A stretch of DNA of 48,732 nt. It comes from a virus (taxonomy: Duplodnaviria > Heunggongvirae > Uroviricota > Caudoviricetes). Location of the stretch: the IMG/VR virus record IMGVR_UViG_2541047965_000007, positions 1 to 48,732 of that record. One strand, given 5' to 3'. The notes under the pieces were generated by a model, which saw nothing but the letters and a program-made list of their open reading frames with translations, had not been told where the DNA came from and did no database searches. Positions within the stretch are counted from its first letter, which is position 1. Each line of letters starts with the position of its first letter. The translations under genes were made by a program, and so were the position numbers. Shown here piece by piece: positions 697 to 39,778 of the stretch.

Positions 697-1059
697 GGGG
701 CTGATTCTGGATTCGACGGGATTTGCGAAACCCAAGGTGCATGCCGAGGGGCGGTTGGCCTCGTAAAAAGCCGCAAAAAATAGTCGCAAACGACGAAAAC
801 TACGCTTTAGCAGCTTAATAACCTGCTTAGAGCCCTCTCTCCCTAGCCTCCGCTCTTAGGACGGGGATCAAGAGAGGTCAAACCCAAAAGAGATCGCGTG
901 GAAGCCCTGCCTGGGGTTGAAGCGTTAAAACTTAATCAGGCTAGTTTGTTAGTGGCGTGTCCGTCCGCAGCTGGCAAGCGAATGTAAAGACTGACTAAGC
1001 ATGTAGTACCGAGGATGTAGGAATTTCGGACGCGGGTTCAACTCCCGCCAGCTCCACCA
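697..1059 (+). ncRNA. ssrA: tmRNA (SsrA), about 363 nt, with internal tag reading frame ANDENYALAA-stop at 786..818
   Basis: Starts GGGGCTGATTCTGGATTCGACGGG and ends tRNA-like GGTTCAACTCCCGCCAGCTCCACCA; tag peptide frame gcaaacgacgaaaactacgctttagcagcttaa read directly. Confidence 0.95.
1015..1059. repeat. att core copy 1 (45 bp, the 3' end of intact ssrA)
   Basis: atgtaggaatttcggacgcgggttcaactcccgccagctccacca is repeated exactly at 34600..34644. Confidence 0.85.
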
Positions 1060-7643: not shown

Positions 7644-8816
7644 TTACGCGCTGACCTGGCTGGAGAAATTAACCAGGTACTGATCGGTGATGCGCTGACG
7701 CAGCATCAGGTTTTCAAGTGGCGGCACTGGCGTGTAGTCGTAGTCGATGGTGAGTTTTCCGGCTTTCAGCGTGTCTTTGTCGTTCACCGACTCATCCAGC
7801 CAGCAATCACCACCAATGAGATAGCCCTGACTGACCAGGCTGCGCATTTTGGCGCGGATACCCTCGATAATGTCGCGGGCCAGCGACGGATTCAGCGGTT
7901 TATCCACCGCCCACATGTGCGCTTCTGCCATCGTGTCCGTCAGCACCTGCGCCGTGCGGGTGTAGTTTTCGAAGGCAAAGAGCGGGTCATCACTCAGGCA
8001 GCGGGAACCCCAGAAGCGAAAACCGTCTTTGCGGATAAGGGTGGTGACGTCGTTCTGGTTCAGCAGTCCCGCATCGGTTGCCGGGTCCTGCAGATCCCAG
8101 AACACATCAGCAGAAATTCCGGTGACACCGTTAACGCCCACGTTGGACAGGCTTTTGTGCCATCCGGTCTGCTCGTCAATTTTGGCGCGCAGACCAAGCG
8201 CACGGGCGGTGGCATAAGCCGTTGCTTCGGCATTCAGCACCGTGTCCCAGCCAGTAAAGTCAGGCCAGATCAGCATCCCTTCGCGCTGGCTGAAGTTTTC
8301 ACGGTAAGTGATCGCCTCCTGTACCGTCTTGCAGCCATACGCTGACAGGTAAGCAAATCCACGCAGGCTTTGCGCCACGCTCAGCAACTCAGTAGCTACC
8401 GCCTTGGTGTCGTGGCCTGGCACGCCGAGAATGCGCGGTTTAACGCCGAGCTGAGCCTGTGCAGATAACAGGGCTTTCATACCTGTTTTTTTACCTTCAG
8501 CAGTCACTGCGCCGATGATATTGGTCGTGGTTTCGTCTTCCGTTTCACCCTGCGGCACACGCACAACAACGGTCACGGGTTTTGCCTGGTCAGCGATGGC
8601 ATCCAGCGAACGAGCCAGCGTGCCTGACTCACCCGCTTTACCGCTGGCAGTCAGCACATCAGTGATCAGCACGGGTTTATTAAGAGGAAACATTTTTGCA
8701 TCGGCATCATCGCCCGTGCAGACCATACCCACGATGGCGGTGCTCACCGTGGTAATGGATCGGGTGCCTTCGTTGACTTCAACAACGCGCACCCCGTGGT
8801 GGTAATCCTGAGCCAT
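7644..8816 (-). CDS. FI: tail sheath protein gpFI
   Basis: 390-aa ORF; P2 synteny and size. Confidence 0.9.
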
Positions 8817-14333: not shown

Positions 14334-14908
14334 ACCGGGCCTCCGGTTGTATCGCCGCCTTTCAGGACGCCAGTATGCTGATGCGCATCAACCACGATCC
14401 CGTTAGAACTCATCGCTCCGCCGCCCTGGGTAACGCCACCATTGATCACCACTTCGCTGTTAATGCGCGTGCGGTCAGCCTCCAGTACAAACTCACTGGT
14501 TTTCATGGTGATGTTGTCAGCGGCTTCAATGACCATTGATTTGATGCCCCTGACATACCAGCGCCCGGTGGCGGGTTCGTATTCAAACCAGCCACCGTCA
14601 GGATGTTCTGTCACGCAGGCGTCCGCCGACGTCGACGGTGGTGCGAACTGATTCGAATAGACAGCGGGCAGCGCAAAGGCGGTTTCCAGATTGCCGCCCA
14701 GACTCAGCAGCACCACCTGCTCACCTTCCGATGGTCGCCACCATGTGCGGGCATTCCCGGCACGCAGCGTCAGCCAGCTAATCCAGTTGGTTTCAAGCTC
14801 GCCCGTTTTCACCCGGCAAAGCCAGTTTTCCCTGTCCACTTCGGTGACTACCCCTGTGCGAATCAGGTTGGTGATAAGGCGCATGATTTCGGTTAATTGT
14901 GCGTTCAT
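14330..14908 (-). CDS. V: baseplate spike gpV
   Basis: 192-aa ORF; P2 synteny. Confidence 0.8.
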   Translation of the reverse strand: MNAQLTEIMRLITNLIRTGVVTEVDRENWLCRVKTGELETNWISWLTLRAGNARTWWRPSEGEQVVLLSLGGNLETAFALPAVYSNQFAPPSTSADACVTEHPDGGWFEYEPATGRWYVRGIKSMVIEAADNITMKTSEFVLEADRTRINSEVVINGGVTQGGGAMSSNGIVVDAHQHTGVLKGGDTTGGPV

Positions 14909-14976
14909 AGGGAAAGGTTGCCATCAGGGGAAGAAAGGCGGCAGTGCTGCAACTTGTATCAGTGCTGATACAAAGA

Positions 14977-15423
14977 TCACCCCGCCAGCCATTGCAGAAT
15001 CATGTCGCGGGTCATTGCCTCAACATCATCATTTACACCCAGCAGGCGGCGCTCTGCGTAACGGACCTCCGGTCCTTTGCGACTGACGCGATCACGCAGG
15101 CCGTAATGGTGAACACGGGCAATACGCTGCACCTTGCCTTCAAACTGTACGCTGGCAGAGTCGGCGCTGGCGGCAGTTTTCAGGTATTTTGTGGTGCGCA
15201 GCTTTGCAAACATCTGACGTTTGATGCGCCCCTTCTTGCTGCGTGCTGTTACCCTGCGCGGTTCATAACTGCTGCCATCTGGATTGCGCTGCATCCTGAT
15301 ATTCTGCTGCTGTGTCCGGCGCAGTTCCTGCGCCAGCTGGCGCATCATGCGGCTTCTCGTGGCTGGTTCCAGATTCGCCAGCAAGGCACTCAGCCAGTCG
15401 TCCACCTTCTGCAGTTCAGCCAC
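14977..15423 (-). CDS. S: tail completion protein gpS
   Basis: 148-aa ORF; P2 synteny. Confidence 0.75.
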   Translation of the reverse strand: MAELQKVDDWLSALLANLEPATRSRMMRQLAQELRRTQQQNIRMQRNPDGSSYEPRRVTARSKKGRIKRQMFAKLRTTKYLKTAASADSASVQFEGKVQRIARVHHYGLRDRVSRKGPEVRYAERRLLGVNDDVEAMTRDMILQWLAG

Positions 15424-15868
15424 GTTTCACCGTCCACATTTCTTCAGGTGCATCAGGTTCCGCTATAGCTTCAACGCTCGACACACTGCCGTCAGTGCTG
15501 ACCAGCACACGCTCCGTCAGTTGCAGGTTCAGGCTGATATCACAGACATCGTTGCGCAGAATATCCACCTCAAAGGTGAATAGCTTTTCCCGTAACGCCG
15601 GGTTATTGATGGCATCGGGCTGGTTATCCCTCAGCCACAGCAAAACCGGGGCCATCAGCAGATTCTGGTCGCCGCTGAAATCCTCAATCACCGCGTTCAG
15701 GGTGTAACGGTACTCCCACGACATGGAGCTGGCCCCCGTGGCAACCAGCGAACCGTTATCCACAAACAGATGCAGTTTGTCCGGGTTATTGCGGACATAA
15801 GGCACCGCTTTATTGAGGGCGTGGCGCAGGGATTGTGGTTTGTTCACTGTTTCGCTCCTGACACGCAA
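15416..15868 (-). CDS. R: tail completion protein gpR
   Basis: 150-aa ORF; P2 synteny. Confidence 0.75.
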   Translation of the reverse strand: MRVRSETVNKPQSLRHALNKAVPYVRNNPDKLHLFVDNGSLVATGASSMSWEYRYTLNAVIEDFSGDQNLLMAPVLLWLRDNQPDAINNPALREKLFTFEVDILRNDVCDISLNLQLTERVLVSTDGSVSSVEAIAEPDAPEEMWTVKRG

Positions 15869-16100
15869 TAATCATGTCCACTTTGTCTGCACAGACCGCC
15901 CAGGCGGCCTCCGTTTCATCCAGCAACGCGTTCAGATCACCGTTAGTGCGCGGCGTTGCCTGATCCAGCCGACACGGCGTCACTCGCGGACAACCACTGA
16001 CGGTAAGCCGTACCTCCGGTGAGTGCCGGACGTTCCCGCAGCCGGATAATGTCAGCAGGCAAAGGAGTATCAGCCCAGCGGCGTAAATCCTCGTTCTCAC
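15810..16100 (-). CDS. lysC: o-spanin LysC (Rz1-like lipoprotein), nested out of frame in the 3' part of lysB
   Basis: 96-aa ORF with signal peptide and lipobox LTLSGC, Pro-rich; embedded in lysB as in P2. Confidence 0.7.
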   Translation of the reverse strand: MRTRIYAAGLILLCLLTLSGCGNVRHSPEVRLTVSGCPRVTPCRLDQATPRTNGDLNALLDETEAAWAVCADKVDMIIACQERNSEQTTIPAPRPQ

Positions 16101-16371
16101 GTTTCAGTTCCTCGATTCGGTGTTGTCGTTGTCTCAGCAGCGCGCTGGTCTGTTCTGCTTCGGCATAGAGCCGCGCCTGCTCCCGGTTATTGGTTTCAGT
16201 CAGAATGGACAGGCTGATAAGCTGGCTGTTGCTCTTTGCCAGTGCCTGGCTTTTGCTATGCAGCTCGTCTGCCTGCGTGCTGATGGTCTGGCTGGCATCA
16301 GCCAGCCGCCACGTCTGCCAGCCCAGCGCCGCCAGTAATAACGCCAGCACAACCAGCAGCAACCGGTTCAT
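15943..16371 (-). CDS. lysB: i-spanin LysB (Rz-like)
   Basis: 142-aa ORF with N-terminal TM helix and coiled-coil periplasmic part. Confidence 0.7.
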   Translation of the reverse strand: MNRLLLVVLALLLAALGWQTWRLADASQTISTQADELHSKSQALAKSNSQLISLSILTETNNREQARLYAEAEQTSALLRQRQHRIEELKRENEDLRRWADTPLPADIIRLRERPALTGGTAYRQWLSASDAVSAGSGNAAH

Positions 16372-16745
16372 GCTGATACCTGTTGCACAATCTGATTACG
16401 GGTCATCCAGAAGGCAATAACGGTCAGCAGATAAAAGACCAGGGTAATAGCCCACCCCGTCCAGGCGAGACTGACGACAATCAGCAATCGCATCACCCAG
16501 CTGATAAATACGTTTTCTTTTCGGGTAATTGTCTTCAGCAAAGATGCCCTCAACTCCTGCCAGAGCGGGCCATTCTTAATTAACGCAGCCAGTGCTACCG
16601 GAATTACCGCCCATGTCAGCAAACAGGCTATCCAAACGCCGGACGCTGCCAGTACCGGAAAAATCCCCTGCGGATACACCATTGCTTCGATTAACAGCGC
16701 CATCCATAACATCAGAAACAGCCCGCTGATTAATTTCTTTTTCAT
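16368..16745 (-). CDS. lysA: LysA-like multi-pass membrane protein (start at internal MKKK)
   Basis: Several hydrophobic helices; position K-lysA-lysB as in P2. Confidence 0.65.
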   Translation of the reverse strand: MKKKLISGLFLMLWMALLIEAMVYPQGIFPVLAASGVWIACLLTWAVIPVALAALIKNGPLWQELRASLLKTITRKENVFISWVMRLLIVVSLAWTGWAITLVFYLLTVIAFWMTRNQIVQQVSA

Positions 16746-16746
16746 T

Positions 16747-17259
16747 TCAGTTTGCTCCCTGTAAGCACCAGGCCATCTCCCGCGCACGGCGGTTATCCAG
16801 CCCCTGATTAAACACACCTTTCACATAAACCCAGCGCGGCAACTGTCGGCACGCATCCGCCCAGCGCCGCTGATTGAGTAATTTCACCAGCGTGGAGCTG
16901 CAGGCATTACCTGTCCCCACGTTGAAGGCAAATGACACCACCGCGTCATACACTTTCTGCGGTGGCTGTTGCTTCACACACCTTTCCAGTGACCGCTCCA
17001 CACGCAGCACGTTGGAGATAAGCCCTTCTGCTGCCTGTCGTTCCGTAATGGTTTTGCCGGGAATGACGCCCGACGTATTACCAATGCCATCGGTCCAGAC
17101 ACCCGCGCTGCACTGATACGGCTGCAGACGACAGCCTTCGTAATCGGCAATCAGTTTCAGCCCCTCCACGGAGGTGTGAAGCTGCTGAAAACCCGGCAGC
17201 GTGGCAGCAATAGCCAGCACGGCCCCGACAAGGCAGCGTTTAACGATTGATGGATTCAT
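16747..17259 (-). CDS. K: endolysin gpK
   Basis: 170-aa ORF with signal-like N-terminus; position between Y and lysA as in P2. Confidence 0.8.
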   Translation of the reverse strand: MNPSIVKRCLVGAVLAIAATLPGFQQLHTSVEGLKLIADYEGCRLQPYQCSAGVWTDGIGNTSGVIPGKTITERQAAEGLISNVLRVERSLERCVKQQPPQKVYDAVVSFAFNVGTGNACSSTLVKLLNQRRWADACRQLPRWVYVKGVFNQGLDNRRAREMAWCLQGAN

Positions 17260-17455
17260 AATCCTCCCGCGAGATCTGTCCGTCGCGCAGAAGCTGGTAG
17301 GCTTTGTGTTTGTAGTACCAGTTGATAGCCAGCATCAGCACACCGATCATCAGGCCGCCCAGCGTTGAGGCATCCTTGATGGACAAATCGCCCAGCCAGG
17401 CCAGCACGACGGCGATGCAATACGTGATAAAGGCGCTGATTCGCTCAAGCGTCAT
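17240..17455 (-). CDS. Y: holin gpY
   Basis: 71-aa ORF with two hydrophobic helices immediately upstream of the endolysin. Confidence 0.7.
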   Translation of the reverse strand: MTLERISAFITYCIAVVLAWLGDLSIKDASTLGGLMIGVLMLAINWYYKHKAYQLLRDGQISREDYESINR

Positions 17456-17458
17456 AAT

Positions 17459-17662
17459 TCAGTCCCATAGCTGGACGGTCTGCACGGTGGTGGTTGTCGG
17501 AATGTCCGGCAGCTCCACCTGCAGCCCGTGAGGTAAAAAGGGGCCGTATTCGGCAAGCCCCGGATTTGCCTTCAGTACCTGCTCCGTGACACCCTGCGTG
17601 CGCCCGTAATGACGCCAGCAAAGCGCGTCCACCGTGTCATACTGATGCGCACGCACTTTCAT
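17459..17662 (-). CDS. X: tail protein gpX
   Basis: 67-aa ORF between L and Y; P2 synteny and size. Confidence 0.7.
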   Translation of the reverse strand: MKVRAHQYDTVDALCWRHYGRTQGVTEQVLKANPGLAEYGPFLPHGLQVELPDIPTTTTVQTVQLWD

Positions 17663-18189
17663 CAGATAAGCTCCACTGTGCAGTGCGGCGCATCCTGCAC
17701 CCGGCTGATGGCCCAGCGGGCGTCACGCCACAAATCACCGCTGGATTCCGCCAGTTCCTCGCCTCGCTTCACACCGGATGCCGTGGCGTCATAGTCCTGG
17801 TATCGTTCGTTGAGCATGGCGCGTGCCCAGCAGTAAACCGCGTTGAAATAGTGCTGAATGCGCTCACTTTTGCCGTCCAGCTGTTCCGCCGGAACCTCAG
17901 CCAGCGACACATATCCCAGCATCTGCTGACGTCTGCGAAACTCATACAGCTCTGCGTTGACCTCCGAAATTGCCGACAGGGCAACCTGCTTTAAACGCGG
18001 CTGCGTCACCGTGCCGTCAGTGCGCATCACGCTGCGAAACTCCGACAGGTCCACATCAGGCCAGAACGGCGTATTTCTGATGATTTCCGCCTGTTCCGGT
18101 GCCTGTTCTGGCGCAACAAACTTCATGCTGCTTTCTCCTGAAATAGAGGGCGGTGGACGGGGTTTTGATGTGGCAGTGCCTTTCGCCAC
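17662..18189 (-). CDS. L: head completion protein gpL
   Basis: 175-aa ORF; P2 synteny. Confidence 0.8.
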   Translation of the reverse strand: MAKGTATSKPRPPPSISGESSMKFVAPEQAPEQAEIIRNTPFWPDVDLSEFRSVMRTDGTVTQPRLKQVALSAISEVNAELYEFRRRQQMLGYVSLAEVPAEQLDGKSERIQHYFNAVYCWARAMLNERYQDYDATASGVKRGEELAESSGDLWRDARWAISRVQDAPHCTVELI

Positions 18190-18221
18190 CCCGTGCCGCC
18201 CGTGCGCGGGGGCACGTTCTG

Positions 18222-18872
18222 TCAGCGGCTGTCATTGCGCAGTCTGCGCTCCAGCTGCTGTTTGTCTTTTTTCACGCCACAGCGGGGATCGAGCTGTAAC
18301 GCATGGTTGAGATGATTAAGGGCGGAAGCCGGATTGCTTTCACTCAGGACAGCGCCAATCGCTTTATGCAGACGCGCCCGTGACTGGTCCGGCATATCCA
18401 GACCGTCTGTCAGCTCCAGCGTCTGCAGCAACAGATCGGCATCAAAGCCGGTGGCGGCAAGCATTGCGCTCTGCGCCGCGTCTGCCATTTCCTCTGCCAG
18501 CACGGTCTGCACATTGCGGTTACCCAGTGGCATCACCCAGCCATGACGCAGGGCATGACGCCCGATCTCCAGCGCCCCGGCATAATCTCCGGCATCAATG
18601 CGCCACAGCATCACGTACATCAGCACGTCATCCTGTTGAGTGCCTCCGGCAGCCAGGACGCCCTCTGCCCAGGCGGCGTACTTCGGCAGCAGCTCCACCT
18701 TGATTTCCGCTTTTTTCACCGTGGACTGAACGCCCTTGAGACGGCGTCGGTCTTCCGCCAGTTGCAGCAGCATCAGGTCATAGCCCGACGCGTGGCGAAC
18801 ACTGCCGCCCTCACGGGCGGCCTGTTCAGCCTGAACGCGCAGGCGATGCTGCCGTGCGGGACTCAGGCTCAT
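18222..18872 (-). CDS. M: terminase small subunit gpM
   Basis: 216-aa ORF after N; P2 synteny. Confidence 0.8.
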   Translation of the reverse strand: MSLSPARQHRLRVQAEQAAREGGSVRHASGYDLMLLQLAEDRRRLKGVQSTVKKAEIKVELLPKYAAWAEGVLAAGGTQQDDVLMYVMLWRIDAGDYAGALEIGRHALRHGWVMPLGNRNVQTVLAEEMADAAQSAMLAATGFDADLLLQTLELTDGLDMPDQSRARLHKAIGAVLSESNPASALNHLNHALQLDPRCGVKKDKQQLERRLRNDSR

Positions 18873-20926: not shown

Positions 20927-22693
20927 ATGAACACCACACTGACACCCGCAGATCTCGATCCCCGTCGGCAGGCCATGCTGCTGTACTTTCAGGGATACCG
21001 CGTAGCCCGCATTGCTGAAATGCTGGGCGAGAAAGTTGCAACCGTTCACAGCTGGAAAAAACGCGACAAGTGGGGTGACTATGGTCCGCTGGATCAGATG
21101 CAGCTCACCACCGCCGCACGCTATTGCCAGCTCATTATGAAGGAGCACAAAGAAGGGAAAGATTTCAAAGAGATTGACCTGCTGGCGCGCCAGTCTGAGC
21201 GCCACGCGCGGATCGGCAAGTTTAACAATGGCGGCAACGAAGCCGACTTAAACCCTAACGTCGCCAACCGCAACAAAGGCCCGCGCCGTCAGCCGGAAAA
21301 GAATGTTTTCACCGATGAACAGATTGAGAAGCTGGAAGAAATCTTCCATTCCTCCATGTTCAACTACCAGCGCCACTGGTGGGAAGCCGGAAAAACCAAT
21401 CGCATCCGCAACCTGCTGAAGTCTCGCCAGATCGGCGCGACCTTTTACTTTGCCCGTGAAGCCCTGATTGACGCCCTGCTGACCGGGCGTAACCAGATTT
21501 TCCTTTCTGCCAGCAAGGCTCAGGCCCACGTCTTTAAACAGTACATCATCGACTTTGCCAAAGAAGTGGAGGTGGAGCTGAAAGGCGATCCGATGGTGCT
21601 TCCTAACGGGGCCACGCTTTACTTCCTCGGCACCAATGCCCGCACTGCCCAGAGTTACCACGGCAACCTGTATCTGGATGAATATTTCTGGATACCGAAA
21701 TTCCAGGAGCTGCGCAAAGTGGCTTCCGGTATGGCTATTCACAAAAAATGGCGACAAACCTATTTTTCCACGCCATCCAGTCTGACCCACAGTGCTTATC
21801 CGTTCTGGTCCGGTGCGCTGTTCAACCGTGGGCGCAACAAAGCCGATAAGGTGGACATCGACCTGTCCCACAGCAATCTGGCCCCCGGCCTGCTGTGCGC
21901 AGACGGGCAATACCGCCAGATAGTCACCGTGGAAGATGCAGTGCGCGGCGGCTGTAACCTTTTCGACCTCGATCAGTTGCGCATGGAGTACAGCCCGGAC
22001 GAATACCAGAACCTGCTGATGTGCGAGTTTGTGGACGATCTCGCGTCCGTGTTTCCGCTCAGCGAGCTGCAGGCGTGCATGGTGGACAGCTGGGAAGTCT
22101 GGACCGACTTTCATGCACTGGCCCTGCGCCCGTTTGGCTGGCGCGAAGTGTGGATCGGTTATGACCCGGCAAAAGGTACGCAGAACGGCGACAGCGCCGG
22201 ATGCGTGGTGGTGGCACCGCCAGCCGTGCCGGGCGGTAAGTTCCGCATTCTTGAGCGTCACCAGTGGCGCGGGATGGACTTCCGCGCCCAGGCTGACGCC
22301 ATCAAAAAACTGACCGAACAGTACAACGTGACCTATATCGGTATCGACTCAACCGGCGTTGGTCACGGGGTTTATGAGAACGTGAAAGCGTTCTTTCCTG
22401 CCGTCCGGGAGTTTGTCTACAACCCCAATGTTAAAAACGCCCTGGTACTCAAGGCCTACGACATTATCAGCCACCGTCGTCTGGAGTTTGACGCCGGGCA
22501 CACCGACATTGCGCAGTCATTCATGGCAATCCGTCGCGCCACCACCGCCAGCGGCAACCGCCCGACCTATGAAGCCAGCCGCAGCGAAGAAGCCAGCCAC
22601 GCCGATCTGGCCTGGGCAACAATGCACGCACTGTTTAACGAACCACTGCAGGGCGAGTCCGCCAATACCAGTAATATTGTGGAGATTTTTTGA
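20927..22693 (+). CDS. P: terminase large subunit gpP
   Basis: 588-aa ORF; size and divergent position match P2 gpP. Confidence 0.9.
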   Translation: MNTTLTPADLDPRRQAMLLYFQGYRVARIAEMLGEKVATVHSWKKRDKWGDYGPLDQMQLTTAARYCQLIMKEHKEGKDFKEIDLLARQSERHARIGKFNNGGNEADLNPNVANRNKGPRRQPEKNVFTDEQIEKLEEIFHSSMFNYQRHWWEAGKTNRIRNLLKSRQIGATFYFAREALIDALLTGRNQIFLSASKAQAHVFKQYIIDFAKEVEVELKGDPMVLPNGATLYFLGTNARTAQSYHGNLYLDEYFWIPKFQELRKVASGMAIHKKWRQTYFSTPSSLTHSAYPFWSGALFNRGRNKADKVDIDLSHSNLAPGLLCADGQYRQIVTVEDAVRGGCNLFDLDQLRMEYSPDEYQNLLMCEFVDDLASVFPLSELQACMVDSWEVWTDFHALALRPFGWREVWIGYDPAKGTQNGDSAGCVVVAPPAVPGGKFRILERHQWRGMDFRAQADAIKKLTEQYNVTYIGIDSTGVGHGVYENVKAFFPAVREFVYNPNVKNALVLKAYDIISHRRLEFDAGHTDIAQSFMAIRRATTASGNRPTYEASRSEEASHADLAWATMHALFNEPLQGESANTSNIVEIF

Positions 22694-23721
22694 TGAAAGA
22701 ACATATCGCGCCAGGCGAAACCGTAACTGCAGAAGAAACTAAAAAACCCGTTGCGGAGGCTTTCAGCTTCGGCGATCCCATTCCAGTACTGGACCGCCGC
22801 GAACTGCTGGACTATGTGGAATGCGTACAGACAGATCGCTGGTATGAGCCGCCAGTGAGTTTTGACGGACTGGCGCGAACCTTCCGCGCTGCCGTACATC
22901 ATAGCTCCCCGATTGCAGTAAAGTGCAACATTCTGACCAGTACCTACATCCCTCATCCGCTGCTCAGCCAGCAGGCTTTTTCACGTTTTGTGCAGGACTA
23001 TCTGGTATTTGGTAATGCCTACCTGGAGAAACGCACGAACCGCTTCGGTGAAGTTATCGCCCTTGAACCGGCCCTGGCAAAATACACCCGACGCGGGTTA
23101 GACCTGGAAACCTACTGGTTTGTGCAATACGGTATGACAACACAGCCGTATCAGTTCACGAAAGGCAGCATCTTTCATCTGATGGAACCGGACATCAACC
23201 AGGAGGTCTACGGCCTGCCCGGTTATCTTTCTGCCATTCCGTCAGCCCTGCTCAACGAGTCCGCCACGCTGTTCCGCCGAAAGTATTACATTAACGGCAG
23301 CCATGCAGGCTTCATCATGTACATGACCGATGCCGCGCAGAATCAGGAGGATGTGAACAACCTCCGCAACGCGATGAAAAGCGCCAAAGGTCCAGGCAAC
23401 TTCCGCAACCTGTTTATGTACTCACCTAACGGCAAAAAAGACGGGCTTCAGATCATCCCATTGTCAGAAGTCGCGGCGAAGGATGAATTTCTTAACATCA
23501 AGAACGTGAGTCGGGATGACATGATGGCAGCGCACCGCGTGCCGCCGCAAATGATGGGGATTATGCCGAATAATGTTGGGGGGTTTGGGGATGTCGAAAA
23601 GGCGAGTCATGTATTTGTTCGTAACGAGTTAATTCCATTACAAAAAAGGCTAATTGAATTAAATGAATGGCTTAATGACGAAATTATTCGTTTTGACGAA
23701 TATAAATTAGGCAATACTTGA
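22690..23721 (+). CDS. Q: portal protein gpQ
   Basis: 343-aa ORF whose ATG overlaps the P stop; P2 synteny and size. Confidence 0.9.
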   Translation: MMKEHIAPGETVTAEETKKPVAEAFSFGDPIPVLDRRELLDYVECVQTDRWYEPPVSFDGLARTFRAAVHHSSPIAVKCNILTSTYIPHPLLSQQAFSRFVQDYLVFGNAYLEKRTNRFGEVIALEPALAKYTRRGLDLETYWFVQYGMTTQPYQFTKGSIFHLMEPDINQEVYGLPGYLSAIPSALLNESATLFRRKYYINGSHAGFIMYMTDAAQNQEDVNNLRNAMKSAKGPGNFRNLFMYSPNGKKDGLQIIPLSEVAAKDEFLNIKNVSRDDMMAAHRVPPQMMGIMPNNVGGFGDVEKASHVFVRNELIPLQKRLIELNEWLNDEIIRFDEYKLGNT

Positions 23722-23758: not shown

Positions 23759-24607
23759 TTAAACACCGGCACCAATGAAACCGCCATATGAATCTTCTTC
23801 AAGGCTGATGTATTCTACCCTCCATTGATCCATCCGCCTCAATGCATACAGGGAGAAATGAGTATCAGCAACAGCTATGCACGTATTCAATTCTATAAGT
23901 TCTGAATGCCCCAAGGTTGGATCACCATAAAACTTATAAAACAAAGCCTTTAGATCAGAACATGTTTGTTCAGCCGCTCTTCTGGCATCGGGGCCACCTT
24001 CAGTTGCATCATAAACAACATTGATAGAAAGCTCATATGGTATGCCTTCCTCAAGATCGTTAAATCTTTCTTCGCCCAAATCGAAAAAAACTCCGATCAA
24101 ATGCTCTGCGTTTGTGGCGATAATATCCGCAACTTCTTTTTCGAAAATAAACTTTTTATCCTCGTCGTAAGCCCGCAAGCGCTCTTCAAACGAGTTAGGA
24201 AACGCTGGACGACCATACTTAGCAGCTAACCATTGCTTAAGAGCTTGTTTCTCTTCTGTGCTAATGGAGAATGCTGGATCGTTTTCCTCACAACAGAAAG
24301 CTTCTTTAGGAATGATGACTTTCCTTTCATGCCGGAGCTCTACTGCATTCTTCTTCGCACTTTCTGGGTTTTCAAAACATAGATCGAGTATTCTCGGATG
24401 CTTAGCTCTTTTCATCCTGCTTGACCCCTTTTTCAAGGGGCCAAACATCAGTTCCACGTTTTTTTCTGAATTACTCTGTAAATCACAATCATGCGTTATA
24501 ACTACAACTTTATGGTTCGTTTCATCAGGCTGCAGAATTCCAAGTGAAACGGCATCATCATGTTTAAGTACATGCCCCTGACGCCATGATGTTCCTCGTA
24601 CCAACAT
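23759..24607 (-). CDS. hypothetical cargo protein (282 aa), no domain recognised
   Basis: Last gene of a three-gene minus-strand module between Q and cos; AT-richer than the phage core. Confidence 0.6.
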   Translation of the reverse strand: MLVRGTSWRQGHVLKHDDAVSLGILQPDETNHKVVVITHDCDLQSNSEKNVELMFGPLKKGSSRMKRAKHPRILDLCFENPESAKKNAVELRHERKVIIPKEAFCCEENDPAFSISTEEKQALKQWLAAKYGRPAFPNSFEERLRAYDEDKKFIFEKEVADIIATNAEHLIGVFFDLGEERFNDLEEGIPYELSINVVYDATEGGPDARRAAEQTCSDLKALFYKFYGDPTLGHSELIELNTCIAVADTHFSLYALRRMDQWRVEYISLEEDSYGGFIGAGV

Positions 24608-24616
24608 AAATGTGAT

Positions 24617-25279
24617 TTATTCCTCTACCGTTCCAGGAATTGAAATAGATGACTTCCAATCATCTGTCGGTTTCGCCTTGCTTGCTAAGTAATTGGCCGA
24701 TTCAGCAGCAGCATTCATCGCTTTAGCTTCATCAATCAATACCTGAACTGCCCTATTCCAATCCTCACCTTCTTTTACTACGTCCATTAATGACTTACCA
24801 TTAAATGCTTTCATTTTCACCAATAGCTTCGCATCATGGAGTCCAGCTTTGGAAAAAGAGTCAGCGACATTACTAAGGTTGGTAATGAATTGCACTTTTG
24901 AAGCATCATCAGGCTGGTTCTCCCCTGACAACCATTTATAGAGAGCCTGCCGAGTTATCCCCAAATCCTTTGCCAGTTCTGACATTGATGGAGACAGCAC
25001 TTCTCGAATATTAGCTAAATGTTGGGCAACATTCCTGACATCAACCTCAGGAGAAATTGCAGGCGTGTACGTTGATTCTATGGAATCAAATGCAAACTGA
25101 ACCCTTGGCTGAACATACTGACGCCATTGCTTATAAGCATTTACAGGGTATGAAGCCCCCGTACCAACTAATAGTAAAGATGCGGCGACAGCAACAACAC
25201 CTGATACACATGAGCTTGACTGCAAATTTGGAGAATATCGATCTACAGAGCCTATGCTTCCGGTGGGAATTGCATACAT
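24617..25279 (-). CDS. hypothetical protein with N-terminal hydrophobic segment and XRE-type helix-turn-helix (start at internal Met)
   Basis: SD ggaggtga 8 nt upstream of ATG at 25279; hydrophobic VSGVVAVAASLLLVGTG; HTH-like MSELAKDLGITRQALYKWLSG. Confidence 0.6.
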   Translation of the reverse strand: MYAIPTGSIGSVDRYSPNLQSSSCVSGVVAVAASLLLVGTGASYPVNAYKQWRQYVQPRVQFAFDSIESTYTPAISPEVDVRNVAQHLANIREVLSPSMSELAKDLGITRQALYKWLSGENQPDDASKVQFITNLSNVADSFSKAGLHDAKLLVKMKAFNGKSLMDVVKEGEDWNRAVQVLIDEAKAMNAAAESANYLASKAKPTDDWKSSISIPGTVEE

Positions 25280-25298
25280 TTTAGTCACCTCCGTTGTT

Positions 25299-26108
25299 TC
25301 AGTGCCATTTAGTACGGGCAAAATCTGAAACCATGCCTTCAAATGCTTCTTTAACTTTACTATGCAACGAAAGAATCTGTTTTTCAATTAACTGCAAATC
25401 AGTTGACATGTTGCCTTCAACATAATGATCTGTATCAATTATTGCGTGCATACGATGCTCTGTGTTACTAAATCTCGGCAACGGCAGTAAACCATTAGGA
25501 ATCATATCTGGCGGAAAACCTAGCTGACCATTCATCTTATGTATTCGTGAAACCATAAATCCATTAGGGATCAATGGCTCAACACATGTCTGATATACGG
25601 ACTCTTGTATAGACTGTATTGGCGTCCATCCGAAATCAACACCATGAAGTTCCTTTACAAGATACTGCTCAATTGTTTCGCTTTTCTCAGGAAACACAGC
25701 ATCCAAATATCGAAGCCCAATCCGACTTAACAGCGATGGCTTAGCAAATTCTAGAACTTTGCTCAGACCAAGTATCAATGACGAGATGAAAGATACATGG
25801 TTATCATAATATGTTGTATGGAACGTAATGAAATCGTTGCCTAAAACAAAACCAGATCTTCTATCTGCATCAATCATCAACCAACTTGTCACAGGCTCAA
25901 ATGAATGTACCGGTGGCTCATTGGGGTTTTTTATTTCAAATTTCAACTGAGTTGTATTGGAAACCTCAAATAAAGGAAATCCCTCAACTCTTAGCGCATC
26001 TTGTATGTCTGGAACATACTTACTCATTGCAGCTATTGGAGTAAACTTTACCTGTACCAATGCATAGTAAACGGGCGCATTGGACATACGTTCGCTGTTA
26101 GTACTCAT
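25299..26108 (-). CDS. hypothetical cargo protein (269 aa)
   Basis: First gene of the module; N-terminus MSNAPVYYALVQVKF reminds me of a conserved-hypothetical family seen in defence islands, but this is unverified. Confidence 0.6.
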   Translation of the reverse strand: MSTNSERMSNAPVYYALVQVKFTPIAAMSKYVPDIQDALRVEGFPLFEVSNTTQLKFEIKNPNEPPVHSFEPVTSWLMIDADRRSGFVLGNDFITFHTTYYDNHVSFISSLILGLSKVLEFAKPSLLSRIGLRYLDAVFPEKSETIEQYLVKELHGVDFGWTPIQSIQESVYQTCVEPLIPNGFMVSRIHKMNGQLGFPPDMIPNGLLPLPRFSNTEHRMHAIIDTDHYVEGNMSTDLQLIEKQILSLHSKVKEAFEGMVSDFARTKWH

Positions 26109-34599: not shown

Positions 34600-34644
34600 A
34601 TGTAGGAATTTCGGACGCGGGTTCAACTCCCGCCAGCTCCACCA
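34600..34644. repeat. att core copy 2 (45-bp duplicate of the ssrA 3' end)
   Basis: Exact copy of 1015..1059; junction between prophage and satellite. Confidence 0.85.
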
Positions 34645-34828: not shown

Positions 34829-36037
34829 GTGGCAAGAACGACACGCCCCCTGACCAACACAGAAGTTCTGCGCGCTAAAGCGTTAGAAAAGGATCTAACG
34901 TTGCATGATGGCGATGGTCTTTTTCTGCTCGTTAAAACGAACGGTAAGAAGTTATGGCGTTTCCGTTATCAACGTCCAGCAACAAAACAGCGAACAATGA
35001 TGGGGCTAGGTGCCTTCCCCACCCTTTCACTTGCTGACGCCCGACGGTTAAGAGCGAATTACCTTTCCTTGTTAGCCAACGGAATTGACCCGCAAATTCA
35101 AGCTGAAATTGCAGTGGAACAGCAGCAAATCGCACTGGACAGTATTTTTTCAACCGTCGCCGCTAACTGGTTCCAGCTTAAAAGCAAAAGCGTTACCCCT
35201 GATTACGCGAAAGACATTTGGCGTTCACTAGAAAAAGATGTATTCCCTGCCATCGGTGAGATCCCAGTTCAGCAAATCAAAGCCCGAATGCTTGTTGAAG
35301 CCCTAGAGCCTATCAAAGCACGTGGGGCACTAGAGACGGTACGTCGTCTGGTGCAGCGTATTAATGAGATAATGATTTACGCCGTAAACACAGGTCTGAT
35401 TGATACCAATCCAGCATCAGGTATTGGGATGGCCTTTGAGAAACCTAAAAAGCAAAACATGCCGACGCTCCGGCCAGAAGAATTACCGAAGCTGATGCGT
35501 TCTTTGATTATGTCTAATCTGTCTGTTCCGACACGTTGTCTTATTGAGTGGCAACTACTGACCCTTGTACGCCCTTCTGAAGCCTCTGGTACTCGGTGGG
35601 CAGAGATCAATCTCGATGCAAAGCTCTGGACGATTCCAGCCGAACGGATGAAGGCCAAACGTGAGCACATTGTTCCTCTATCTCCTCAGGCATTAGAAAT
35701 TCTGGAAGTGATGAAACCAATCAGTGCTCATCGTGAACATGTTTTTCCGAGCAGAAATGACCCAAAGCAAGCAATGAATAGCCAGACTGCAAATGCTGCT
35801 TTAAAGAGAATTGGATATGGTGGTAAATTAGTAGCTCATGGTTTACGGGCAATTGCTAGTACATGTATGAATGAAGCAGAATTTAATCCTGATGTGATTG
35901 AAGCTGCATTAGCTCATATTGAAAGTAATGATGTTAGAAAAGCCTATAACCGCTCAACCTATCTAGAGCATCGAAAAGAATTGATGAACTGGTGGGGTAT
36001 GCATTGCACTTCTGCAAAAAATGGGATTGTTAGATAG
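34829..36037 (+). CDS. intA: P4-type tyrosine integrase (GTG start)
   Basis: 402-aa ORF recognised as P4/CP4-57-type integrase; SD aaggag 7 nt upstream of GTG. Confidence 0.9.
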   Translation: MARTTRPLTNTEVLRAKALEKDLTLHDGDGLFLLVKTNGKKLWRFRYQRPATKQRTMMGLGAFPTLSLADARRLRANYLSLLANGIDPQIQAEIAVEQQQIALDSIFSTVAANWFQLKSKSVTPDYAKDIWRSLEKDVFPAIGEIPVQQIKARMLVEALEPIKARGALETVRRLVQRINEIMIYAVNTGLIDTNPASGIGMAFEKPKKQNMPTLRPEELPKLMRSLIMSNLSVPTRCLIEWQLLTLVRPSEASGTRWAEINLDAKLWTIPAERMKAKREHIVPLSPQALEILEVMKPISAHREHVFPSRNDPKQAMNSQTANAALKRIGYGGKLVAHGLRAIASTCMNEAEFNPDVIEAALAHIESNDVRKAYNRSTYLEHRKELMNWWGMHCTSAKNGIVR

Positions 36038-36078
36038 CAGCATCTTTTTGACTCAATTCTACATAAATGGAGTAATAA

Positions 36079-36441
36079 ATGGATCTTAGTTTCTTTAAGA
36101 GCAGCTTGAAATACAATGCAACAGCAACGATTTTCTGTGTTTTTGCATTATATTTATCAATGCCTATTTTCGAAAATGTTAATTTCATATCGAGCCATCC
36201 AATTATCGTCTCAGTACTATTTACTTTACTTGTAAATTCTTTACTTTTAATAATTTACTGGACATCCCATACAAAAAAAACAAATTCAAAGTCGGGTGTA
36301 AAAGGAAACAAAATAATCGGAAACAAGGCAAAAAACATTAACATACTTTCCAATGGAGAAATAACTAAAAACATCGTCAGTAATAATGATAGTAATGGTG
36401 ACATTAATATTGGGCAGGTCTTCAAAAATGGAAAAAAATGA
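36079..36441 (+). CDS. small membrane protein with two TM helices and Asn/Lys-rich repeats; probably the N-terminal part of a frameshifted gene
   Basis: SD ggag upstream; hydrophobic ATATIFCVFALYLSMPIF and IIVSVLFTLLVNSLLLIIYW; ends at TGA right after an A7 tract. Confidence 0.55.
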   Translation: MDLSFFKSSLKYNATATIFCVFALYLSMPIFENVNFISSHPIIVSVLFTLLVNSLLLIIYWTSHTKKTNSKSGVKGNKIIGNKAKNINILSNGEITKNIVSNNDSNGDINIGQVFKNGKK

Positions 36442-37009
36442 AAGCCTAGTCATTTCTGATAATGAAATAACTAATAATAATCCTGGGAGAGATCTGAACA
36501 TTGGGACACACATAAGTTTCAATGAGGTTAAGAATCGGAGCAATGCATTAGCAAATTTATTAGAACGTTCTAAAAAACTTTGTGAAACAGATCAAGAATA
36601 TAAATACATGCTCGAAGAGTTACAAGAGTATCTTCAGCCCCGTCCAGGTCGAAAAATCATAGGGTTAGAAGGAAAACTAAAAGAAGGCAATCGACTTGAT
36701 TTGTTAGAAGATGCAGCTTATTTAGAAAATAAGTTTGCAAGACGAGTTAGCAAGCATCAGTTTTCCATATCAGAAGAAATCATTTACTGTCATTGCTTAA
36801 GTAAAATAAACTCATCTTTTTCACAATATGTCAAACCACTGTTTAAAAACACAGTAAACACTGCTATAATTGACAGAGTCATTTATGACAGAATAGTTGA
36901 ACCTCTTTATGAAGAAGTGTCTGAAGTTAGTACCGCTATTTCTAGCGAATTAATTAGAGGCATGATTTTCTTCTTAACGGGTAAATGTCACTTACGGTGG
37001 GTTGGTTAA
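36428..37009 (+). CDS. hypothetical helical protein; probably the C-terminal part of the same frameshifted gene
   Basis: Begins with a repeat (SDNEITNNN...DLNIG) homologous to the end of the upstream ORF but in the +1 frame; stop overlaps next start (TAATG). Confidence 0.55.
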   Translation: MEKNESLVISDNEITNNNPGRDLNIGTHISFNEVKNRSNALANLLERSKKLCETDQEYKYMLEELQEYLQPRPGRKIIGLEGKLKEGNRLDLLEDAAYLENKFARRVSKHQFSISEEIIYCHCLSKINSSFSQYVKPLFKNTVNTAIIDRVIYDRIVEPLYEEVSEVSTAISSELIRGMIFFLTGKCHLRWVG

Positions 37010-37500
37010 TGATTATTTATCATCCATTTAAAGATGCAAACCATTGCTCATATCGTATTATAAGCTTGCTATATAAAAACAATAACAAGATTAGGGATGA
37101 GCACCTTAATTTTATGGATTTCTATTACCTTTTCCCTTGTCAAATAAAGAACATTGATGGATGGCCGCGTTCAAATTCGAAACTTGCACGCCGAATTTCT
37201 ACTATAGAGGACACTTATGAAACAATTGAAAATCCTCGTAGAATTTTCTTTGAATTAAATATAATACGTAGAAACACCTTAGCACATTTATTTTCGAAGG
37301 GCATTCTATCCTTGATAGATGAATATATCCACCTGAATATTGAAAGAATACCAACATCCCTGATTAATACGCTTGAAGCTGACACCTTTAGAGCCACCTT
37401 CGAATTTACTACCATTGCTAACGAAATACCCAAACTAGCAATCAAAGGTAAAAAAGGCCTTAAAGCAAAAACTAATTTAATGGAATATCGTTATGATTAA
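37009..37500 (+). CDS. hypothetical small protein (163 aa), middle component of the cargo operon
   Basis: Translationally coupled on both sides (TAATG at 37007..37011; ATGATTAA at 37493..37500). Confidence 0.6.
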   Translation: MIIYHPFKDANHCSYRIISLLYKNNNKIRDEHLNFMDFYYLFPCQIKNIDGWPRSNSKLARRISTIEDTYETIENPRRIFFELNIIRRNTLAHLFSKGILSLIDEYIHLNIERIPTSLINTLEADTFRATFEFTTIANEIPKLAIKGKKGLKAKTNLMEYRYD

Positions 37501-39412
37501 AAAACCGTCATATCTCAAGTTAAATAGATTAGTCATAACTAAGGCTGGTAAACAGTTATATGACGAAAAATTTCACGATGGTATAAACATAATCAGAGGG
37601 GAGCACTCTGTAGGAAAATCAACAATTTTAGATATGATTTTTTATATTTTAGGCGGAGAATTAAAAAAAGACGACTGGAAATATCCAGCCGATAAATGCT
37701 CGAATGTTAATGCAGAGATTACAATTAATGACCGCATTATTACCTTAACCAGGCCAGTGGATCCTAGTGGCGCAGCTCCTCATATTAAAATCTATGAAGG
37801 AGAGTATGATAAGGCAATGAAAGATGCAGATGGCTGGCTAGACTATGGCTCAAGGAGAAGCAATGAGCGATTAAGCTTCTCAGAAATGATGTTTGAACTT
37901 TTCGATTGGGGACAATATAAATCTGACAGCCATCAAAATTTAACCATGCATCAAATAATGCGACTCATTTATTTAAGTCAATCATCAGATTCTAACAGAA
38001 TATTTCGCAAAGAGTCTACTCGCTCTGACAATGAAAATACCAGGACAGCTATCGCTGAGTTTCTTTTCGGTCTCGATGATTTGGAAACTCACTCAGTTCG
38101 TCAAAATTTATTGAAGTATGAGAGAGATTATGAAAATACCGGAACAGAATTAAGAGCATATTTCGAGCTTTTAGGAAATGACTCTAATCTAACTGTTGAT
38201 ATAATTAACGAATTATTGAATGAAAAATACACTGAACTATCCAAAATAGACTCAAAGAAAGAAATTTTATTGCGTTCAACAGATAATATTGATGGTAACA
38301 ATGAATATAACCTAGCTATCGAACGCAATGACATCCTTTTAAAAATACAATCACTAACAAACAAAATATCACTTAAAAACAATGAGTTACATTCAATAAA
38401 GACCGAAATCCAGGACTGTTTGCTTTTTGGAAAAAATTTAGCATATCGTTTAAAATCTTTGAATGAATCACAAGAAACATATAAAGGCTTAGGTCGAATT
38501 TCTTTTGAATACTGCCCTTGTTGCTTAACACCAATATCAGAACACGATAACACTGATAGTGGTTGCGCACTTTGCAAATCAACAGTCAACAATTCCTCAT
38601 TAGAGGAAAAATATATTGAATCACTGAACGAACTGCAATATCAACAGCGTCAAAATAATAAAATTATAGAAAAACTATATAGTTCAGCAGAATATATAGA
38701 GGGCTATATTAAAGAGCTTCAAAAAGAGCTTGAAAGCTTACACAATAGATTGTTTGAAATCAATTTAGTCTCAAATTATCGAGAATTGGCTATAACTTCA
38801 ATCGTAGAAGAAAGAACTGCAAAATTAATTGAAATCAACTCCCTGCAAGATAAAATTGATTCAATAGCTAAAGTTGACGACTTAAAATCAAAACGTGAAG
38901 ACATCGCAAAGCAAATGGAAAAATTTCGTTCACGAATAACCGCTCTTGAAGCAAAAAACAAGCGCAGAAAAGAATATGTTTACTCAAAACTATCTGAATT
39001 TTCCACTTTTATTCTTGAAGGAGACTCGGGGAATGAAGAGCTATTTAAAACAGCAACTCAACTTTCCTCAGAGATTGACTTTGCAAAAGATCGCTGGCTT
39101 TTGAATGAACGGGTAAATTACTCAGATAGTTCAAACGTTGTCAAAAAAGCAGCTCTACATTTAGCATTTCTTATTTTTTCAATCGTTGATTCAGCTTGCC
39201 GATATCCTCGTTTTTCCATTATGGACTTCGAATGCGGGGATATAAATGAAGCTCGAAGCCATAACCTTCAAAAATTAATCACTACAAGCCTTAGTAACTT
39301 TAAAGGTTTTCAGCTTATTATGACTACATCTAAAATTGATTCATCTTTGAACAACAACACTTACGGGGTTGGTCGTTATTATGACAAAAATGACTACATT
39401 TTGAAGATTTGA
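37493..39412 (+). CDS. Rad50/SbcC/SMC-like ABC ATPase with coiled coil and Cys4 cluster
   Basis: Walker A GEHSVGKST at 37598..37624 in an SMC-head-like N-terminus; long Glu/Lys/Leu-rich middle; CPCC-x16-CALC at 38513..38575; C-terminal FSIMDFE Walker-B-like motif. Confidence 0.75.
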   Translation: MIKKPSYLKLNRLVITKAGKQLYDEKFHDGINIIRGEHSVGKSTILDMIFYILGGELKKDDWKYPADKCSNVNAEITINDRIITLTRPVDPSGAAPHIKIYEGEYDKAMKDADGWLDYGSRRSNERLSFSEMMFELFDWGQYKSDSHQNLTMHQIMRLIYLSQSSDSNRIFRKESTRSDNENTRTAIAEFLFGLDDLETHSVRQNLLKYERDYENTGTELRAYFELLGNDSNLTVDIINELLNEKYTELSKIDSKKEILLRSTDNIDGNNEYNLAIERNDILLKIQSLTNKISLKNNELHSIKTEIQDCLLFGKNLAYRLKSLNESQETYKGLGRISFEYCPCCLTPISEHDNTDSGCALCKSTVNNSSLEEKYIESLNELQYQQRQNNKIIEKLYSSAEYIEGYIKELQKELESLHNRLFEINLVSNYRELAITSIVEERTAKLIEINSLQDKIDSIAKVDDLKSKREDIAKQMEKFRSRITALEAKNKRRKEYVYSKLSEFSTFILEGDSGNEELFKTATQLSSEIDFAKDRWLLNERVNYSDSSNVVKKAALHLAFLIFSIVDSACRYPRFSIMDFECGDINEARSHNLQKLITTSLSNFKGFQLIMTTSKIDSSLNNNTYGVGRYYDKNDYILKI

Positions 39413-39464
39413 CAATACCGTTTACCCACATTGTCATTTAACGTAGTTATCTTCACAAATCTAA

Positions 39465-39500
39465 GTTGCTAATTTATTAATAATTAGCAACCTTTTTATT
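39465..39500 (+). terminator. intrinsic terminator of the cargo operon
   Basis: gttgctaatt-tattaat-aattagcaac hairpin followed by cttttt. Confidence 0.6.
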
Positions 39501-39595
39501 GTCACAAAACGTTTTACATTCATATGAGGCTGTTTCGATAAATTAGTTTTAAACACCTCTGTATAATAAATATGCGTATATCCACTCAGCGCGCA

Positions 39596-39614
39596 GTGCT
39601 TTCCCCGCCTCGCC
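39596..39614. other. P2/P4-type cos (19-nt cohesive-end sequence)
   Basis: gtgctttccccgcctcgcc is the reverse complement of GGCGAGGCGGGGAAAGCAC, which I recall as the P2/P4 cohesive end. Confidence 0.8.
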
Positions 39615-39778
39615 CGCCCGCTTTGCGGGGCGGTTTTAATGCAGTTTCACTGACACGCTCAGGCCGCGCCGGGAATGGCGCGGTCTGCAGAAAATGAGGC
39701 AAGAAAACGCATGCAAAGCCATGCACCTTATCGATGCATGGCTTTTTTCAGTAAAAACGGGCGGATTTTCGGGGAGTT

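Follow-up and report, generated by a model that had tools for sequence, protein, structure and literature searches.

A lysB/lysC gene pair with overlapped architecture in a P2-like prophage, predicted to encode a two-component spanin

Results

Layout of the lysB/lysC locus

We analyzed a 48,732-nt stretch of Caudoviricetes DNA (IMG/VR record IMGVR_UViG_2541047965_000007), referred to here as the window. A preliminary description of this DNA had reported ORFs of 142 and 96 aa in different frames, and both were found on the minus strand. The main features are as follows.

15943..16371, minus strand: lysB, putative i-spanin gene (142 aa, ATG start; ORF, TIGR03495 and phrog_89)
15810..16100, minus strand: lysC, putative o-spanin gene (96 aa, GTG start; ORF, NF038368 and PF23793)
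15943..16100, minus strand: doubly coding stretch of 158 nt (lysB codons 91-142 and stop; lysC codons 1-53)
15810..15847, minus strand: 38-nt overlap of the lysC 3' end and the start of gene R

The lysC frame is +1 relative to lysB. lysC had also been described as wholly embedded in lysB, which the coordinates contradict: 158 nt lie inside lysB, and a further 133 nt run past the lysB stop codon, the final 38 nt of them inside the tail gene R. At the other end of the pair, the lysB ATG overlaps the stop codon of an upstream LysA-like gene (4-nt ATGA). The architecture is that of the "overlapped" class typified by P2 and not of the "embedded" class of lambda. P2 is the type example of overlapped spanin architecture (PMC6139136); P2 lysC begins inside lysB, in the +1 frame, and terminates in R (PMC3091744). 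The terms "nested" or "wholly embedded" and "P2-type" are therefore contradictory, because in the P2 type lysC passes beyond lysB into R. The locus illustrates cleanly how the two architectures differ. Its least variable part is the 38-nt lysC/R overlap, where 5 of 38 sites are variable (mean pi 0.005).

Neighboring genes of the lysis cassette

The pair is flanked by the following genes.

15416..15847, minus strand: gene R, tail completion protein (PF06891 P2_Phage_GpR, 159.5 bits)
16368..16745, minus strand: LysA-like multi-pass membrane protein, 125 aa (NF038378, 121 bits; phrog_162)
16747..17259, minus strand: endolysin, 170 aa (PF00959, 137 bits; phrog_7)
17240..17455, minus strand: holin of the HP1 family, 71 aa (PF16080, 36.7 bits against a cutoff of 28.8; phrog_20)

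The cassette thus reads holin, endolysin, LysA-like gene, lysB/lysC and R, and its lysis genes, all on the minus strand, abut or overlap one another. The pair lies in the lysis cassette beside the holin and endolysin genes, which is the location expected of a two-component spanin. Gene R, with a GTG start codon at 15847 preceded by AGGAGC, forms the downstream boundary of the cassette.

The order Y-K-lysA-lysB/lysC-R proposed in the preliminary description agrees with this arrangement, and its LysA assignment holds, while Y and K are appropriate as positional labels only. The LysA-like gene shares phrog_162 with P2 LysA; pairwise similarity to P2 LysA is weak, and the shared family indicates homology to P2 lysA at the family level. 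The endolysin has the Phage_lysozyme fold and a SAR-like N-terminal segment. Orthology of the holin and endolysin with P2 Y and K was considered and rejected, since the holin belongs to phrog_20 (phrog_175 for Y) and the endolysin to phrog_7 (phrog_90 for K), and BLASTP against Y and K gave only short segments with negligible similarity (E = 1e-4 and 0.035, respectively). Of the holin, endolysin and LysA-like genes, only the last shares a family with its P2 counterpart; the spanin module has therefore been kept while the holin and endolysin were exchanged. Such exchange is usual among P2-like phages (PMC3091744).

A promoter and terminator scan of positions 14900-18300 gave nothing beyond shuffled expectation on the coding strand near lysB/lysC. 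A hairpin at the position of the P2 "putative attenuator" in lysC was no better than shuffles (z = -0.69 in the window and -1.49 in P2). A third copy of the ssrA 3' repeat, which would close a P4-like element, was not found.

Family membership of LysB and LysC

LysB matches TIGR03495 (phage_LysB) over residues 3-136 of 142 with 176.5 bits (cutoff 92.75) and phrog_89 (Rz-like spanin) with E = 8.8e-46. LysC matches NF038368 (P2_Rz1) with 122.6 bits and PF23793 (LysC) with 57.9 bits, the cutoff being 27 for both models, as well as phrog_456 and phrog_952. TIGR03495 and NF038368 are NCBI "equivalog" models, and the E-values of the LysB/LysC family HMMs were 5e-36 and 3e-52. The three PHROG families (phrog_89, phrog_456 and phrog_952) are common to the window pair and P2 LysB/LysC. 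By these scores, the window genes are clear members of the P2 LysB and LysC families. The lysC frame was also found by tblastn in 276 phage records, which include phages of Klebsiella, Yersinia, Escherichia, Salmonella, Erwinia, Pseudomonas and Burkholderia.

The length of the lysC ORF and its lipobox motif alone do not exceed chance. The window has many long ORFs in alternative frames (up to 174 aa), for example an antisense ORF at 14944-15468. A loose PROSITE-like lipobox rule matches 12 of 1532 candidate starts in the window, and 11 of the matches are apparently spurious; we therefore rejected the lipobox by itself as evidence for lysC. lysC is placed beyond chance by its family HMM scores and by the conservation of the frame across the 276 phage records.

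In Pfam, the sole match of LysB was the coiled-coil family TMF_TATA_bd, below threshold (19.7 bits against 29.1), which we rejected as a compositional match. A sequence search of the PDB with LysB and LysC gave nothing meaningful (best E = 0.3 and 0.76).

Predicted features of LysB

16309..16365, minus strand: predicted N-terminal transmembrane anchor of LysB, RLLLVVLALLLAALGWQTW (lysB codons 3-21; hydropathy)

The hydrophobicity of LysB peaks at residues 4-18 (Kyte-Doolittle 15-residue mean of 2.86), and a hydrophobic N-terminus is kept in 10 diverged homologs. A single-sequence AlphaFold2 (AF2) model consists of one long helix spanning residues 2-101 (pLDDT about 90-98; 84.8 on average over the whole protein), and the C-terminal part after the helix is less confident. 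The predicted topology, an N-terminal transmembrane domain (TMD) followed by a mostly alpha-helical periplasmic domain, is that of an i-spanin. LysB contains no Cys.

Start codon and predicted signal peptide of LysC

16038..16100, minus strand: predicted lipoprotein signal peptide of LysC (lysC codons 1-21; pattern rule and hydropathy)
16109..16113, minus strand: Shine-Dalgarno-like GAGGA, 8 nt upstream of the lysC GTG

The 96-aa LysC opens with MRTRIYAAGLILLCLLTLSGC, in which a basic n-region (MRTR) and a 12-residue hydrophobic core (h-region, IYAAGLILLCLL) are followed by the lipobox L-S-G-C, with the break between LSG and C and with Gly at position +2. The Kyte-Doolittle maximum of the h-region is 2.31 (residues 5-19). 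The preliminary description had given the lipobox as LTLSGC, and this motif is present in the 96-aa ORF, with its Cys at residue 21. Lipidation is predicted at Cys21. Two codons upstream of the GTG, the reading frame is closed by a TGA (16104-16106), which rules out a longer N-terminus, and there is no further ATG, GTG or TTG between the GTG and Cys21.

The residue at position +2 after the lipidated Cys decides the sorting of lipoproteins (Lol rule). As LysC has Gly and no Asp at this position, sorting to the outer membrane is predicted. A signal peptidase II signal without Asp at +2 is what is expected of an o-spanin, and LysC has both features as judged by the pattern rule.

Besides the lipidated Cys, mature LysC contains four Cys. 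It had been described as Pro-rich, which is mildly true: mature LysC has only 7 Pro in 76 residues (9.2%), with no Pro run and no penta-proline stretch. The published values are 9.5-9.7% for P2-like LysC and about 26% for lambda-like Rz1 (PMC3091744). An AF2 model shows the signal helix, a linker and a helix at residues 56-87, with a confidence (mean pLDDT 57.6) that is too low for a fold search. The linker after the signal helix is probably unstructured and carries four of the seven prolines.

Conservation and selection in the two reading frames

A set of 114 close loci from viral contigs, together with the window sequence, was reduced to 92 distinct haplotypes. The GTG start codon of lysC and the lipobox (L[TI]LSGC) are present in all 92, and the lysC ORF is intact in every haplotype, with only the last residue lost in four. 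The preliminary description had named the absence of a lipobox or a start codon as grounds for abandoning lysC; lysC has both, and neither has been lost among its relatives.

Over the 95 nt where lysC is the sole coding frame, the variable sites number 5, 7 and 13 at the first, second and third codon positions, which is a third-position bias. Synonymous changes make up 18 of the 30 observed in this stretch, against 22% of those possible (p = 6.5e-6). The 158-nt doubly coding stretch has third-position bias in neither frame among the 92 haplotypes. In this overlap, 14 of the 50 observed changes are non-synonymous in the lysB and lysC frames alike, which is a depletion relative to the 221 of 474 among possible changes (p = 0.0056, one-sided binomial). 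The site counts in both stretches are those of haplotypes and not of independent events, and transition bias is ignored. We regard these as signs of selection on both the lysB and the lysC frame, with the counts being supportive and not proof.

Comparison with P2 and diverged Peduoviridae

The P2 reference (NC_001895) has lysB at 7922-8347, lysC at 8202-8492 and R from 8455. As in the window, P2 lysC is in the +1 frame and overlaps lysB and then R, and a LysA-family gene lies directly upstream of lysB. In both, lysC and R share 38 nt and their start codons are 253 nt apart. The parts of lysC differ slightly: 146 nt lie inside lysB in P2 and 158 nt here, and 145 and 133 nt, respectively, extend past the lysB stop. 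LysB has 141 aa in P2 and 142 aa in the window, and LysC has 96 aa in both, with its lipobox Cys (residue 21) and its four other Cys aligned. However, identity is only 32% for LysB and 41% for LysC (full length, gapless), P2 lysC starts with ATG instead of GTG, P2 LysB has two Cys near the C-terminus where the window LysB has none, and P2 has Y and K in place of the HP1-type holin and the SAR-like lysozyme. The proposal that the genes are a P2-type LysB/LysC (Rz/Rz1-like) pair is borne out by the curated HMM scores well above cutoff, the similarity to P2 and the P2 geometry.

A more diverged set comprised ten Peduoviridae of Escherichia, Yersinia, Klebsiella, Salmonella, Erwinia, Pseudomonas and Burkholderia, including P2, drawn from the tblastn search of phage records and eight fetched loci. 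All ten have lysC in the +1 frame, with 146-176 nt shared with lysB, 94-145 nt beyond the lysB stop and 8-47 nt inside R. GAGG precedes the lysC start at a matching spacing in nine of the ten, P2 among them. The lipobox Cys is aligned at position 21 in all ten LysC homologs; Cys37, Cys43 and Cys70 occur without exception and Cys80 in nine of ten. The lysC start codon is GTG in the clade of the window and ATG in the P2 clade, a difference that corresponds to Arg or Asn at LysB residue 91, just before the motif ENE..RRW. This motif is conserved in LysB. A scan of viral contigs seeded with an alignment of the window and P2 LysB returned only loci of the same kind with 83-99% identity.

Comparison with the spanins of lambda and T4

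The predicted functional design of the pair is that of lambda Rz/Rz1: an i-spanin with an N-terminal TMD and a helical periplasmic domain, a small outer-membrane lipoprotein as o-spanin whose +1 gene starts inside the i-spanin gene, and the spanin as the last function of the lysis cassette (PMC6139136). It differs from lambda, where the whole of Rz1 lies within Rz, in that lysC continues beyond lysB into R. In addition, no lambda-family Pfam match was found here, the penta-proline stretch is absent from LysC with its 9.2% Pro, and the disulfide Cys, which in lambda occur in both Rz (C99 and C152) and Rz1 (C29), are confined here to the o-spanin.

T4 PseT.3/PseT.2 likewise combines a Cys-free i-spanin with an o-spanin that has Cys and a predicted C-terminal helix (PMC6139136); in LysC, too, a helix is predicted with low confidence (residues 56-87). 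In contrast, the two T4 genes do not overlap but stand apart from each other and at a distance from the holin and endolysin genes, and their sequence family is unrelated to LysB/LysC.

Discussion

Proposed function of LysB and LysC

We propose that lysB and lysC of this P2-like (Peduoviridae) prophage, arranged in the overlapped architecture, very probably encode a two-component spanin, the complex that disrupts the outer membrane in the final step of phage lysis. LysB would be the i-spanin, anchored in the inner membrane by its N-terminal transmembrane helix and extending a long alpha-helical domain into the periplasm. LysC would be translated in the +1 frame from the GTG at 16100, which lies within lysB, exported, cut by signal peptidase II, lipidated at Cys21 and delivered to the outer membrane. 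Judging from homology with lambda Rz/Rz1 and P2 LysB/LysC, LysB and LysC would join by their periplasmic ends and bridge the envelope. Once the holin and endolysin have cleared the peptidoglycan meshwork, the spanin complex would collapse and merge the inner membrane with the outer one, freeing the virions. The analysis shows the ORFs and their signals, the family membership, the gene geometry and the conservation of the two frames; we infer the membrane topology, lipidation, complex formation and membrane fusion of LysB and LysC. The mechanism follows work on lambda and P2, in which the two spanin proteins bridge the periplasm (PMC6139136).

The lambda and T4 spanins require homotypic disulfide bonds, 169 of 526 i-spanins lack Cys, and the maximum number of Cys in an o-spanin is four (PMC6139136). 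With no Cys in LysB and four conserved periplasmic Cys in LysC, the present pair falls inside this published range, and covalent homodimerization would have to come from LysC. LysC thereby supplies the at least one periplasmic Cys expected for homotypic disulfides, which are themselves predicted.

Alternative interpretations

According to RefSeq, LysC (WP_224732563.1) starts at a CTG at 16058 and has 82 aa (MLTLSGC...). Such a protein would have no functional signal peptide, because only six residues precede the lipobox Cys, and it would not be an outer-membrane lipoprotein. All three RefSeq genomes checked carry the CTG start. However, CTG is a rare initiator and no Shine-Dalgarno-like sequence lies ahead of 16058, whereas the GTG at 16100 is preceded at 8 nt by GAGGA, is itself invariant in the 92 haplotypes and aligns with the LysC ATG of P2, PSP3, EtG, FLC5 and RCIP0057. 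The N-terminal pattern MRT.I.AAG is conserved with P2, which is unexpected if this stretch is untranslated, although lysB constrains it too, and the NF038368 alignment begins at residue 5 of the 96-aa LysC. Wrong o-spanin starts are a documented annotation problem, with 64 cases (PMC6139136). The GTG at 16100 is the better-supported start, and we consider a LysC that begins at the CTG and is not an outer-membrane lipoprotein highly improbable. It is harder still to credit that the 96-aa frame is a chance alternative-frame ORF that makes no protein. Long spurious ORFs such as the 174-aa antisense ORF, the 11 other lipobox-like motifs and the phage records in which the lysC frame is unannotated would fit a chance ORF; set against them are HMM matches of lysC at E = 5e-36 and 1e-15, tblastn similarity in the 276 records down to 35-50% identity, the synonymous excess in the lysC-only stretch and the conservation of the start codon, lipobox and four Cys. 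As far as computation goes, the conservation data refute the chance-ORF reading.

The lambda-type arrangement, in which the o-spanin gene lies wholly inside the i-spanin gene, has in common with the present pair that a lipoprotein ORF begins within the i-spanin gene and in its +1 frame, but it is refuted by the coordinates, with the lysC stop 133 nt beyond that of lysB. Moreover, the Pfam matches of LysB and LysC (E <= 0.01) comprise only the LysC family and the sub-threshold coiled coil, and the Pro content of LysC is far from the 26% or so of lambda-like Rz1. It is also very unlikely that LysB and LysC are regulators of lysis timing and not envelope-spanning fusion proteins. This idea draws on the label "lysis regulatory protein" in several phage records and on the P2 record, which labels lysB and lysC "nonessential; affects timing of lysis". 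Timing effects are, however, what spanin loss is expected to cause in the laboratory when divalent cations are absent, and P2 lysB and lysC together reportedly complement lambda Rz/Rz1 null mutants (Markov et al., 2004, J Bacteriol 186:4628). The predicted anatomy, an inner-membrane anchor with a helical rod and an outer-membrane lipoprotein signal, is that of an i-spanin and an o-spanin. The current curated families are named Rz-like and Rz1-like, and a spanin survey places P2 LysB/LysC beside lambda Rz/Rz1 as a paradigm two-component spanin (PMC6139136). The two-component spanin thus remains our preferred reading of the pair, and none of the observations contradicts it.

Sub-clade features

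Two mild oddities of the sub-clade may be mentioned: the combination of a Cys-free LysB with a four-Cys LysC could represent a T4-like chemistry within a P2-type overlapped pair, and the near-invariant 38-nt lysC/R overlap could couple the translation of R to the end of the lysis cassette. We hold these suggestions to be doubtful. If true, covalent dimerization entirely through the o-spanin or translational coupling of R would be a small variation on known spanin biology.

Prevalence and annotation

The 562-nt region (15810-16371) is 100% identical to DNA annotated as lysB/lysC in RefSeq E. coli genomes, where lysC is noted as "substantially overlapping although not fully embedded". It matches 1028 E. 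coli records (1023 genomes), of which 1020 records (1015 genomes) are covered over at least 80% of the query; the region is thus found in 1023 of 5426 complete E. coli genomes, about a fifth. Because identical DNA carries this annotation, the pair is nothing new: it is an already known, ordinary annotated arrangement and adds little biologically. The practical value of the analysis lies in annotation: the o-spanin of this clade carries the truncated CTG start in RefSeq genomes, has shrunk to 38 aa in one RefSeq phage record and is missing from others.

The lysis cassettes of Wadgaonvirus and Elveevirus, which are prophages and phages of E. coli and Klebsiella such as Escherichia phage 500465-1 and Klebsiella phage 4LV2017, have 97-98% nucleotide identity to that of the window and are in effect the same genes. 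o-Spanins are often missing or mis-started in annotation (PMC6139136). With lysC annotated in truncated or fragmentary form or not at all, automated surveys of lysis cassettes or lipoproteins will miss or misclassify LysC. The Wadgaonvirus and Elveevirus records differ from the present locus in under-annotating lysC: that of 500465-1 has a 38-aa C-terminal fragment, and that of 4LV2017 has none.

Prophage ends and the adjacent satellite

The P2-like prophage, the 33.6-kb Peduoviridae-type element that carries the lysis cassette, is flanked by a 45-nt repeat from the 3' end of the tmRNA gene ssrA, which is complete in the window and encodes the tag ANDENYALAA.

697-1059, plus strand: ssrA, complete
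1015-1059: last 45 nt of ssrA
34600-34644: exact second copy of these 45 nt

The bracketing of the prophage by the two repeats identifies them as its att sites and places its integration at the 3' end of ssrA. Escherichia coli strain 3090 has an identical lysis cassette, but its prophage is located at another site, between ybjL and rcdA.

A P4-like satellite element (34829-46913) directly adjoins the second ssrA repeat, and therefore the helper prophage and the satellite are arranged in tandem. In the window, the satellite's right end was sought and was not found. The following features were assigned to this element.

34829-36037: integrase
36386-39412, plus strand: cargo
39779-40351, minus strand: Psu
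40425-40925, minus strand: Delta (Ogr/Delta zinc finger)
42436-43035: Ash-family protein
42543-42783: c4-a1b1, isrK and C4 antisense RNA (Rfam matches)
44234-46567: primase-helicase
46613-46732 and 46794-46913: two 120-nt direct repeats, similar to the P4 crr region

Cargo genes

Two ORFs in the satellite cargo match CTD9 (PF20285) and MC5 (PF20291), which are parts of ABC-three-component (ABC-3C) conflict systems, and the 639-aa ORF that follows them has no Pfam match. The cargo in this variable region of the satellite probably constitutes an anti-phage system.

The P2-like prophage has cargo of its own, with the portal gene (22690-23721) on one side and the replication genes on the other.

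23759-26108, minus strand: three ORFs of 282, 256 and 269 aa

The 256-aa ORF gave a weak HTH match, and no Pfam match was obtained for the 282- and 269-aa ORFs. This region is a variable cargo site, because the related prophage of strain 3090 has different cargo at the same position (AIPR family and ComF family).

Lysis genes

The annotation of the o-spanin gene lysC of this clade (15810-16100, minus strand, and the same DNA in RefSeq) is inconsistent between records. In all three RefSeq E. coli genomes checked, it is an 82-aa ORF starting from CTG (WP_224732563.1). The record of Escherichia phage 500465-1 annotates a fragment of 38 aa, and that of Klebsiella phage 4LV2017, like several others, lacks lysC altogether. 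The gene also contains a potential RNA structure.

15875-15925, minus strand: 7-bp hairpin GGCCGCC-UGGG-CGGUCU

At the homologous position in P2 lysC, a "putative transcription attenuator" is annotated. Neither hairpin folded better than shuffled sequence (z = -0.69 for 15875-15925 and z = -1.49 for P2), and there is thus no evidence of hairpin function.

Opposite the transmembrane segment of lysB, the i-spanin gene, an antisense ORF (16190-16420, plus strand) fits a loose, PROSITE-like lipobox rule (…LLLCSSSAC). As a lipoprotein gene, this ORF was taken as spurious, because reverse reading of hydrophobic coding segments yields lipobox-like motifs.

The endolysin and holin genes together occupy 16747-17455 (minus strand). 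The endolysin begins with MNPSIVKRCLVGAVLAIAATLPGF, a weakly hydrophobic Gly/Ala-rich segment containing Cys9, and residues E41, C43 and C50 are located downstream. This pattern is similar to that of P1 Lyz and other SAR endolysins whose regulation involves disulfide caging. The partner of the endolysin is a 71-aa HP1-family holin, which is also a weak match to the P21 holin family, and the two proteins may act in a pinholin/SAR-endolysin lysis pathway.
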